From Eledone cirrhosa (lineage: Eukaryota), in contig OZ024760.1 in the NCBI GenBank assembly GCA_964016885.1, forward strand, positions 31,434,001 to 31,498,000: a DNA stretch of 64,000 nt, written 5' to 3'. How positions within the stretch are numbered: the stretch's first letter is position 1; each line of letters begins with the position of its first letter. Positions 15,313 through 38,300 of this stretch are shown one piece after another. The notes under the pieces were generated by a model. It did not search any database. It was given only the letters and a program-made list of their open reading frames with translations, and was not told the origin of the DNA. A program made the translations under genes and the position numbers.

Positions 15313-15363
15313 AGTTTAAGCAAAGAATCGCTGCTTTCACCCTTAACGGGATCTTCTGAAACT
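15313..15363 (-). ncRNA. Hammerhead-like motif with variant core CAGAAGA
   Basis: AGTTT-CAGAAGA-tCCC gttaa GGGt-GAAA-GCAG cgattct TTGC-TT-AAACT. Confidence 0.6.
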
Positions 15364-17070
15364 AACAAAGTCAATCTGTGAATGCAGAAGTGAATATTTC
15401 AAAAAAACGTTGCAACCGGAGGAAGACAGGAAGACGATACTTTGGTTCGTGGAAACGTTCACTGGCAAAGAACGAGAAAAAACGAATATAATACATCATT
15501 ATTTGGAGCGGTGAAAAACAATTACACGCAAAGACAAAACCACATTTATGGTATAAAAGAAGTTGTAGACTAATATTCTATTAGGTCGTTCATAGAAACG
15601 TTCTCTGGCAATGAACAGAAAAAACGAAGATAATACGTCATATGTGGAGTAGGGAGAACAATTGCACGCAAAGACAAAACGACGTAAATGGTATAACTGA
15701 AGTCGTAGACTAAAATTCTAACTAGGAAACCAAATGATTCTCTGCTTCAGAGTTAAGAATAAAGTAAATAAAATACAGAGGTAAATGAAATTAAATAAAT
15801 ACATACATGCACGCATCTATATACGTACATACACAAGCATACGTGAAAACACACGCCATAGGTATACGCACGTACACAAAAAAAAAACAATAAAAACGCA
15901 CGCACATACAGAACCCACGCAACGCCTGTACCCGCACGCATACGAATGTATACACCAAATACACATAAAAATATATATAAAAAATATATATATATATATA
16001 TGTGTGTCTGTGTGCGCGTATACATATAATTAAATAAATGTATATAAATAAATAAATATGTATATAACAAGCGCACACACATACCTACATGTAAATACAC
16101 TTATGTTCGGAGATGTACGTCAACCAAAACACGAAGTACACATATACACACACCCTACATACATACGAACCCGCATACTCACACAGACGCAAAACTCACG
16201 TATACACATAACCAAAAGCATATGTACCAGAAAAAATAATATATACGCCATAACATATACAATCAAATATACGTACGAGAAAGTATATGTACCTTCACAA
16301 AACATACAGGTAATATATACTTACCTATACAAATAAGTAATGGTATAAACATAACATATACTTAGCTACCACATCAAGACGTAAAATATCCGTGTATAGA
16401 TCGTACTATCCGTTAGGGTATAACGTGGGGCTGTAATACAGGAATGTTTTGTGCAATTTATGTTTACAAGCCGAAATTGCCTCAGATTTTTTGTTTAAGA
16501 TGTGGTCTATGGCGTAGAGTATTTCCAGGGCCTCAGCGCGGCAGAGGTCACATGGTCTTTTATTTCCGTTATACGATCTAGCCCTAGCTAGGATCTCCCA
16601 GTGTAACTTATATTGCGTGTGGTTGTCTTTTAGACTCCATATGACGTCATATTCCTTCTTAAAGGGTAATGAAAAGAATGGGTATGCATGTAAAGACGCT
16701 GCTTGAATCTATTGGCGGTTAACTCTATGTAAGCCCTACGGGACGTGGGTGTTTCAACCTTACATTTGTAGACAATGTTACTAGAGAGGCATTTCCCGGA
16801 TAGGGGGCAGTCAACCCGATTCCTACAATTACAGTTAGTACTAACTACAGGGTTGCACGTGTTCCTACGGCTAGGTAGTTTAGCTAAATTTGAAGCTGTG
16901 ATGTTATGTGCAAGGTTAGGAATCGTAGAGTTAGAAATTTTAATAGTATTTCTATTAAAAATGTTACTATATTTATGTGTAGGGGGAAAATGCTTCATAA
17001 TAAGGGAGAGAAAGATCTTAGCTAATGGTGTGGCCACCTCCGTATTATATGGTGGGTTATACCATATAAT

Positions 17071-17246
17071 TGTTTCTACTTTAGGCACAAGGCCAGCAAT
17101 TACCCAGTGCATTACTGGTACTTTATTTTATCGACCCCGTAAGGATGAAAGGCAAAGTCAACCTCAGCGGGATTTGAACTCAGATCGTAAAGGGAAGTAA
17201 CTATGCTGGAAAGCATGGCGTCCGACCCTCTACCGATACTCGCCCT
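17071..17246 (-). mobile_element. SINE family B with 16-bp TSD, inserted in the PLE
   Basis: TSD GGTTATACCATATAAT at 17055-17070 and 17247-17262. Confidence 0.85.
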
Positions 17247-17588
17247 GGTTATACCATATAATGCGACGGGATCTATTTCTTCTAGGTCTATTCTCGTACT
17301 CTGTATATGCTACCTTATCGACAAATCCACTCCGAGCAAGAGCTTCATTGTAATATGTGGAATGGTCGTTGAAAATATGCTCGTTAGTAGATAGACGGGA
17401 AAGCCTCAAAGAAACGTTTCTTACCAGGTTCTTGGTTATGCTGGCAGGATGGTTAGAATGCTTACTTATGTAATTAAGCGTATCATTCGGCTTTCTAGAC
17501 GGGTAATGCAAGCCATTCGATAAATAAAGTTTCAGAAGATCCCGTTAAGCAGCGATTCTTTGCTTAAACTTTAATCTGTTATTTTAAT

Positions 17589-36885: not shown

Positions 36886-37189
36886 TTTATATATATATAT
36901 ATTTATATATATATTTATATATATATATATATATTTATATATATATATATATATATTTATATATATATTTATATATATATATATTTATATATATATATAT
37001 ATATTTATATATATATATATTTATATATATATATATATATTTATATATATATATATTTATATTTATATATATATATTTATATATATATATATTTATATAT
37101 ATGGAAAGTTATATTTAAATTGTTGGGTTAACAACGAGTAAATATTTATAACTGATATAAAAGCACTCAACAAGTATTTGGAGTATATT

Positions 37190-38025
37190 TATGATATTAA
37201 ATAAATGGAAACTATATTTATAAAACCATATTTATTTCATTATATATATTTCAGGGATATCATATTAACAATATGTTATGCCATCTTCAGACAAAATACA
37301 ATATAAACAGTCTTATAGATACGACATACCTTTCAATCACCTTGCATTTGTGAGGTTGATTTGGCAGTAAAAAATATTGTGGACAGTTGTAAAAAGAAAG
37401 AGATAAAGAGAGAAAGAAAGAGAAACGAAGAAAAAGAAGAAATGTATGTGACTAAATAGAGGGATATAGAAAGATAGATAAAGAGAAGAACTTCATGTAA
37501 AGAAACAGAGAGAAATATATATAGAGAGAGGAAAAAAGAAAGAGATATATAGAGATAGATAGAGAAATTAGGAAGTTGAGTATCGGTTGATACATTTATT
37601 TATTTATTTATTTATTTATTTATTTAGCTCTAGTATTAATGTAAAGAGAGATGTATGTAGTTAAGAGAGAAAATAGCCGTTATATAGAGAGAAAAAAGAG
37701 AAAATGAAAAAGAGAAAATGAAACATAACCAGACATAAACGATGCAGAATTTAAAACCGCTATGTTTTATCCGTAGAAAATATTAGTTCGTATAAAACAG
37801 GCATTATAATGTAAGTACCAGTATTCATGAAATTTTTTACTGCCAAATCAACCTCACAATGCAAGGTGATTGAAAGGTATGTCGTATCTATTTATTTATA
37901 AGACTGTTTATATTGTATTTTGTCTGAAGATGGCATAACATATTGTTAATATGATATCCCTGAAATATATATAACAAAATAAATATGGTTTTATAAATAT
38001 AGTTTCCATTTATTTAATATCATAT
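37190..38025. mobile_element. PLE-type inverted-repeat element
   Basis: About 37190-37375 is the reverse complement of about 37833-38025; an HHR sits in each arm. Confidence 0.75.
37916..37981 (+). ncRNA. Type I hammerhead ribozyme; inverted copy at 37233-37298 (-)
   Basis: TATTTTGT-CTGAAGA-tgg..CATATT gtt AATATG..cct-GAAA-TATATA-TA-ACAAAATA. Confidence 0.7.
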
Positions 38026-38054
38026 ATTTATATATATATATTTATATATATATA

Positions 38055-38300
38055 TATATTTATTAAAATAACAGATTAAAGTTTAAGCAAAGAATCGCTG
38101 CTTTCACCCTTAACGGGATCTTCTGAAACTCTAAGTTTCTGAGTTTCAGAAGATCCCGTTAAGGGTGAAAGCAGCGATTCTTTGCTTAAACTTTAATCTG
38201 TTATTTTAATAAATATTTGCTCTACGGTTCTTATATATTTGATATATATTTTCCTTATCGAGCCCTCTTTGGATTTTAGTCTTCAATTTTATTATTATTA
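38055..38300 (+). mobile_element. PLE pLTR remnant: hairpin of two CAGAAGA-variant HHRs, 38080-38130 (-) and 38142-38192 (+)
   Basis: Same sequence as 15200-15363; arms separated by 11 nt. Confidence 0.75.

Follow-up and report, generated by a model that had tools for sequence, protein, structure and literature searches.

The hammerhead motif of an abundant Penelope-like element (PLE) family in Eledone cirrhosa carries adenine in place of uracil at position 4 of its core, and this U4A change is a real new core variant, probably of attenuated activity. Hammerheads in Penelope-like elements, and natural variants of the hammerhead core, are already known. The reading we favor, with moderate confidence, is that U4A in a source lineage was copied into tens of thousands of insertions, that cleavage is likely much reduced and spread likely proceeded from uncut RNA, and that the motif has been constrained as a transcript start, by residual protein-assisted cutting, or by both.

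The motif and its element

The window (the whole 64,000-nucleotide stretch of DNA analyzed) contains four identical 51-nt motifs, located at 15313-15363 (-), 30274-30324 (-), 38080-38130 (-), and 38142-38192 (+). Two further copies are damaged: 30754-30804 (+) is altered at two places, by G8A and in stem II, and a deletion runs through GAAA in 17529-17575 (+). These are the six copies listed in the first-pass annotation, and re-reading of the window confirmed them. On the sense strand, stems I, II, and III are arranged around the core in type I order. A 5-bp stem I is followed by C3 A4 G5 A6 A7 G8 A9 (CAGAAGA), a U-U apposition, and a 3-bp stem II; the 3' half consists of G12 A13 A14 (GAAA), a 5-bp stem III closed by A15.1-U16.1, the CUU triplet (U17), and the 3' arm of stem I. 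The CAGA core, stems, GAAA, and CUU are thus placed as first described, with stem III counted as 5 bp. Stem order, the A15.1-U16.1 pair, and an NUH triplet are those of a type I hammerhead, and C3, G5, A6, G8, A9, G12, A13, and A14 all follow the hammerhead consensus. The sole core departure is A4, at the position of the nearly invariant U4 of the CUGA turn. The CAGAAGA 7-mer occurs 17 times in the window against a chance mean of 4.3, and only six occurrences are family copies.

In the 15313-15363 copy (-), C3 is at 15358, A4 at 15357, and the U-U apposition at 15351/15339; GAAA runs from 15338, and the predicted cut lies between 15318 and 15317. This copy belongs to a 5'-truncated Hydra-clade element (15200-17525, -) comprising an RT thumb remnant, linker, GIY-YIG remnant, 3' UTR, hammerhead, and long tail. 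Its CxCx5C linker and GIY-YIG endonuclease remnant (16406-17127, -) end at the family stop codon; the GIY-YIG part is frameshifted, with another repeat inserted at about 17065-17246. A retained spliceosomal intron (15462-16324, -) has its GT donor about 80-90 nt past the stop and its AG acceptor 103 nt upstream of C3. The tail occupies 15200-15312 (-); in the family, the 3' end lies beyond the predicted cut by either about 29 or about 119 nt. An inverted short arm (17528-17588, +) starts at stem I and contains the hammerhead with the GAAA deletion. The 30274 hammerhead lies in an intronless (spliced) copy (30161-30623, -; exon junction between 30422 and 30421), and the G8A hammerhead in an inverted intronless arm (30645-30859, +; junction between 30656 and 30657). 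At the third site, a mini-copy (38056-38130, -) that begins on the first base of stem I and has the short 3' end contains the 38080 hammerhead; its fold-back partner arm (38136-38304, +) starts at stem I, has the long tail, and contains the 38142 hammerhead. The placement downstream of GIY-YIG proposed in the first-pass annotation holds for the 15313 and 30274 copies, both of which follow GIY-YIG endonuclease remnants.

The hammerhead copies likely sit in introns of a host gene. An 805-codon open frame at 41071-43488 (+), which has no confident Pfam match, is preceded by several exon-like frames near 1987-27723, and the host-gene frames include helicase- and TPR-like ones. The window also contains RTE-like non-LTR retrotransposon ORFs at 32800-35841 (-) and 17893-20259 (-), with endonuclease and RT recognized by eye, and a different Penelope-like ORF remnant with a weak GIY-YIG match at 39457-40542 (+). 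Canonical CUGA hammerheads from other repeat families are present at 20435 (+), 37290 (-), 37924 (+), and 5967 (-); those at 37290 and 37924 are two arms of one insertion.

Genome-wide, the 25 bases past the predicted cut are matched exactly at 30,641 places, a lower bound on family copy number, and a protein search of the same genome returned 31,026 first-look candidates. The first-pass identification as Penelope is upheld by protein motifs and by the homology of the motif to pLTR hammerheads, and can be narrowed to the Hydra clade. Marks of that clade given in parts of Craig 2021 (PMC8557442) are RW(R/K), DKT, a CxCx5C linker, CxxC/CxH around E and N, and a GIY-YIG at the C terminus, together with (TA)n targets, a size generally <3 kb, and a short type I hammerhead near the 3' end. 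An intact family protein (locus L392) has RWR and SDKT in the N-terminal part of the RT, CNCRNRADC as its CxCx5C linker, no CCHH, CDLC...E...N...CKH supplying CxxC and CxH around conserved E and N, and, at the C terminus, a GIY-YIG of the form IVY...YIG; Pfam returned no GIY-YIG match for this divergent endonuclease. In the window and at other loci, 3' ends enter TA repeats. The family therefore shares with the clade, as covered in those parts of PMC8557442, its protein marks, (TA)n targets, and short type I hammerhead near the 3' end, as well as two frequent features, U at H17 and a U-U at the base of stem II; it differs in A4, G15.2-C16.2, a 7-nt non-palindromic loop III, and a long intron-bearing 3' UTR. 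That UTR accounts for a size above 3 kb (about 3.3 kb between two hammerheads in locus L092). The same source describes the clade as universally carrying canonical hammerheads, whereas the motif in that place here has A4; Hydra-1_oBim, as given there, differs from the family in every stem. By these sequence criteria, the family is a Hydra-clade PLE and its motif a pLTR hammerhead homologue.

General PLE traits are also evident: partial tandem and inverted copies, intron retention, and two 3' ends that define a tail. In 100 consecutive matches on one contig (C1), 57/100 3' ends lay 26-29 nt and 40/100 lay 112-119 nt past the predicted cut. The 3' UTR intron is kept in most long copies and absent from 302 pattern matches in which the donor exon has a non-GT continuation. 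At the first exon base, both subfamily alleles occur among the intronless retrocopies, which indicates that splicing was captured on at least two occasions. This real intron, the pyrimidine-rich tract that precedes the core, and a Drosophila virilis Penelope intron that ends at helix I (parts of Cervera 2014, PMC4209133) would all suit an arrangement in which the core CAG acts as splice acceptor and is joined to an upstream exon with CUG at its end, restoring a canonical CUGA. However, among the 100 matches listed, the donor is joined in 96 to the AG acceptor located 103 nt upstream of C3 and in 0/100 to the core, in a pattern blind to an AG just before stem I. The 100 listed non-A4 copies contain no recurrent exon junction, and the sole upstream CTG followed by GT would yield 2 bp of stem I. 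Splice activation of the core is thus largely refuted, and we consider it very improbable.

Adenine at position 4 in the family and its relatives

In a genome-wide search with a 31-mer, position 4 read A at 17,900 places and another base (C, G, or T) at 183, so that A4 accounts for 99.0% of 18,083 matches. A was present in 68/68 sampled copies covering the site, and contig runs revealed no position-4 variant at 2% or more. These counts give A, and not the CTGA consensus that the first-pass annotation had named as its refutation, as the genome-wide state. An older subfamily, about 78-87% alike in its flanks and different in loops II and III with stems unchanged, had A4 in 19/19 matches to a pattern in which position 4 was left free; because that pattern held the core and stem II constant, part of their conservation is a product of the search. 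Further copies of this subfamily recovered by DNA similarity also had A4. Every subfamily found is fixed for A4, and none for a second core letter. The proposal that the source element carried A4 is therefore borne out, and U4A was acquired before the subfamilies split.

Among 30 non-A4 copies examined, those with T were point changes or inversion junctions, and about 60 of the 100 non-A4 copies among the matches listed were judged by eye to be fold-back junctions at position 4. CTGA matches with the same stem II were rejected as a canonical sister family, since 13/13 examined were fold-back junctions centered on position 4. Hundreds of perfect head-to-head junctions (L111-L123; contig C1) have their axis at this position, within a 7-base interrupted palindrome, and likely arose by snap-back priming of cDNA. 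Two other candidates were set aside. A second abundant family with an apparent A4 hammerhead lacks stem I and lies antisense beside its own canonical hammerhead, and is a chance look-alike; what looked in the sister family like a decayed A4 core proved to be loop II of its complete U3-A8 hammerhead.

The nearest family in the genome is this sister (protein identity about 51%); its hammerhead is complete and has U3-A8, U4, and a GUC triplet. At the sister's loci (L368-L387, e.g., L370:1810-1905 +), stem II is about 55 nt and many copies fold back inside loop II. Among 78 metagenome loci, 54 had a plus-strand match, of which 52 were U4 (one also with a C4 motif) and 2 were weak G4; A4 was found in 0/54, and many of the 24/78 loci without a match were short contigs. 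In File S2 of Craig 2021 (PMC8557442), CUGA is present in every one of the 25 Hydra families, which had been found with a CUGA descriptor. By our count from that file, the U-U pair is present in 14/25 and H17 = U in 10/25 published families; both are thus ordinary in the clade, leaving U4A as the only unusual core feature. In FastTree trees of own-genome and metagenome homologues, midpoint rooted and without bootstrap, the A4 family clusters together with its sister and P0001, and the remaining families fall elsewhere. With the sister, 52/54 metagenome relatives, and 25/25 published Hydra families in agreement, A4 is, on sequence comparison, derived from U4.

Position 4 has also changed in a separate Hydra lineage of the same genome (L443-L492), which belongs to another clade in these midpoint-rooted, unbootstrapped trees. 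U4C is fixed in two of its subfamilies that are about 80% alike (examples L149:3700-3745 + and L369:1145-1195 +); stem II has 8 bp, and the palindromic stem III bears a compensatory change. The linked ORFs are 83-87% identical to each other, and one subfamily gave 2,153 first-look candidates. The retention of U4C alongside a compensatory stem III change, and the intact remainder of the A4 core, suggest that change at position 4 can be tolerated. Elsewhere, a hammerhead-like motif with C at position 4 and long stems was seen twice (L270, +, about 963), and a 430-bp tandem unit contains a canonical hammerhead (L138, L142), one locus abutting a Hydra endonuclease fragment in opposite orientation.

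In the parts of Perreault 2011 (PMC3088659) drawn on, position-4 variation is natural, as in a viroid U4C with lower activity in vitro and enough retained in vivo, and U10.1-U11.1, also present here, is tolerated; those variants are single loci, whereas A4 characterizes a 30,000-copy family, and U4A is unnamed in that text. The PLE hammerheads in parts of Cervera and de la Pena 2014 (PMC4209133) likewise are type I, lie in the pLTR, occur in thousands of truncated copies, and have weak stems and a nearby intron, but their core variant is U3-A8, with no A4 in that text, and stem III is minimal and palindromic rather than 5 bp. No natural U4A was found in the literature searched, which included portions of Cervera 2014, Perreault 2011, Craig 2021, and Eckert 2023, with the Lunse 2017 survey, figures, and some supplements outside its scope. 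The first-pass expectation that motif searches miss A4 was correct for a strict CUGANGA descriptor, which fails by definition, but not in a way particular to A4 for Rfam: the A4 copy, a natural U4 copy, and another family's canonical hammerhead all went undetected, so that result is uninformative about A4.

Expected cleavage and constraint on the motif

Published mutants and folding indicate that cleavage of the A4 motif is likely much reduced. U4 contacts the phosphate between A6 and N7 (Perreault 2011, PMC3088659, in part), a U-turn contact that A4 would lose. In the passage of Roberts 2023 consulted, single and double mutants of the CUGA turn were low in activity, with no rescue except by a C3-G8 swap; U4A is not singled out there among these mutants, and no measured U4A cleavage rate was found in the portions of the literature searched. 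Folded as a 51-mer, the motif was no better than shuffled sequences (z = -0.03), and the predicted minimum lay 3.3 kcal/mol below the hammerhead fold. Pairing of A4 with U11.1 is predicted; it would complete a 5-bp helix that takes in GAAA and hides the 5' arm of stem I, weakening cutting. The modeled probability of the C3-G12 mispair was 0.72 with A4 vs 0.06 in a naturally occurring U4 copy; either way, the complete hammerhead fold was predicted to be rare (0.0007 with A4, 0.0019 in the U4 copy). Energies for the 51-mer leave out tertiary contacts and bound protein.

It is possible, though we give it clearly less weight, that A4 is a tolerated natural variant with a useful cutting rate in the cell, helped by an element protein or by tertiary contacts. 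All other core positions are intact, and the older subfamily differs in loops and flanks with its stems unchanged, although its conservation is partly built into the search pattern. Subfamily changes are fewer in the motif than upstream: in a 100-copy sample, a minor allele of at least 10% was present at 0/46 motif sites vs 10/95 upstream sites (P = 0.016, resting on 10 sites). The U4C lineage with its covarying stems, the in vivo activity of viroid U4C (Perreault 2011, PMC3088659, in part), and an Anolis PLE hammerhead that cleaves only with protein present (parts of PMC11167929) would also fit an active variant, as would the 5-bp stem III, which makes a dimer unnecessary. Against this, CUGA mutants are poorly active and second mutations gave no rescue (Roberts 2023, in part), A4 is predicted to favor the competing helix, and no compensatory pair changes were found within the family. 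Between the family and its U4 relatives, both sides of the stem II pairs differ; stems I and III did not align across families. The first-pass annotation had implied that the variant still cleaves and had suggested covariation across genomic copies as a check; with no compensatory change in the family and a predicted A4 misfold, that claim is so far unsupported.

We regard as unlikely the opposite extreme, a fully dead and unconstrained ribozyme in which a chance U4A knockout in one expanding source element appears uniform through the youth of the family. Copies are about 92-96% identical to a reference and many keep the 713-codon frame open, post-insertion changes fall freely on core letters, and PLE hammerheads may be dispensable or parasitic (parts of Craig 2021, PMC8557442). 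Yet A4 is common to a subfamily only about 78-87% alike in its flanks, no second core letter has become fixed in any subfamily found, and the subfamily-variable sites avoid the motif at the P value given above. The motif looks, from these sequence patterns, to be under constraint despite A4.

5' ends, uncut RNA, and the meaning of U4A

The predicted cut was spanned intact in 99/100 sampled copies and coincided with a 5' end in 1/100; about 450/30,641 copies start near it (an enriched count, by eye). Cut-site 5' ends numbered 0/24, 0/16, 0/43, and 0/6 in canonical families and 3/65 in the sister family. Canonical families also lack a cut-site peak, so intact cut sites do not separate A4 from U4 families, and genomic 5' ends were dropped as a read-out of cleavage because canonical families were no higher than the A4 family.

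A peak of 5' ends was instead located at stem I: 25/100 copies (19/77 insertion events) start at -5 to +4 of C3, about twelve times the upstream rate, vs 6/89 incidental copies of four canonical families (P = 0.0007). Eight copies start exactly at the first base of stem I (-5), and 6/8 of these, a small set in which one G is templated by inversion, follow a G not encoded there. In an independent run, the largest listed 5' loose end was also at this base (57 contigs). Seven of the 25 ends in the stem I region, those at -2, represent fold-back junctions in the 7-base palindrome that has position 4 at its center, which means that a share of the peak may have an origin other than a transcript start. 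The sequence context of the stem I start is one we take to be initiator-like. This pattern of ends makes it likely that a capped transcript begins at the first base of stem I. Internal initiation on transcripts starting there may have produced mini-insertions of 75 and 165 nt, such as 38056-38304. Full-length ORFs are also present behind longer or shorter 5' repeats, which, with the upstream intron, indicates that other transcript starts exist. Two 5'-end peaks in canonical families were rejected as reference artifacts, and the count for a seventh family was excluded as a TA-repeat artifact. One canonical family (L071, L478, L056 vs L329) has a small 5'-end peak 69 nt upstream of C3, with a preceding G in 3/4, resembling the stem I peak of the A4 family.

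Copying from uncut RNA has a described counterpart. According to parts of Frangieh 2024 (PMC11167929), two internal reverse-transcription starts define the tail of Poseidon from Anolis carolinensis, hammerhead mutants leave in vitro insertion unaffected, and uncut RNA is the main substrate. The A4 family resembles Poseidon in its two-site tail and, probably, in copies from uncut RNA; Poseidon, in the same parts of PMC11167929, has a canonical core, belongs to a different clade, and starts its ORF inside the hammerhead, whereas the start here is about 200 nt past C3. Under the reading we favor, transposition would have continued from uncut RNA after U4A arose, consistent with Frangieh 2024 and Craig 2021, and the sequence would have been kept as the transcript 5' end, for residual protein-assisted cutting, or for both.

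More speculatively, and improbably in our estimate, position 4 could be a tuning point of Penelope hammerheads, with U4A and U4C fixed independently in one genome to lower cleavage while the fold was kept. A transcript starting at stem I would mean that full cutting decaps the element's own mRNA, and a slowed but active A4 could have let capped RNA survive, aiding the rise to >30,000 copies.

Proposed roles of PLE hammerheads are the processing of tandem precursors or a passenger existence. A family that has been very successful and recently active while its catalytic turn bears a fixed change offers a natural experiment on the need for the ribozyme; ready controls for it exist in the same genome, in the U4C lineage and in many U4 families. 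If A4 is dead, a Hydra element can expand in vivo without cleavage, contrary to the description of canonical hammerheads as universal in the clade; if A4 cuts, the hammerhead consensus must admit a further base at position 4, and whole families have escaped descriptor searches.
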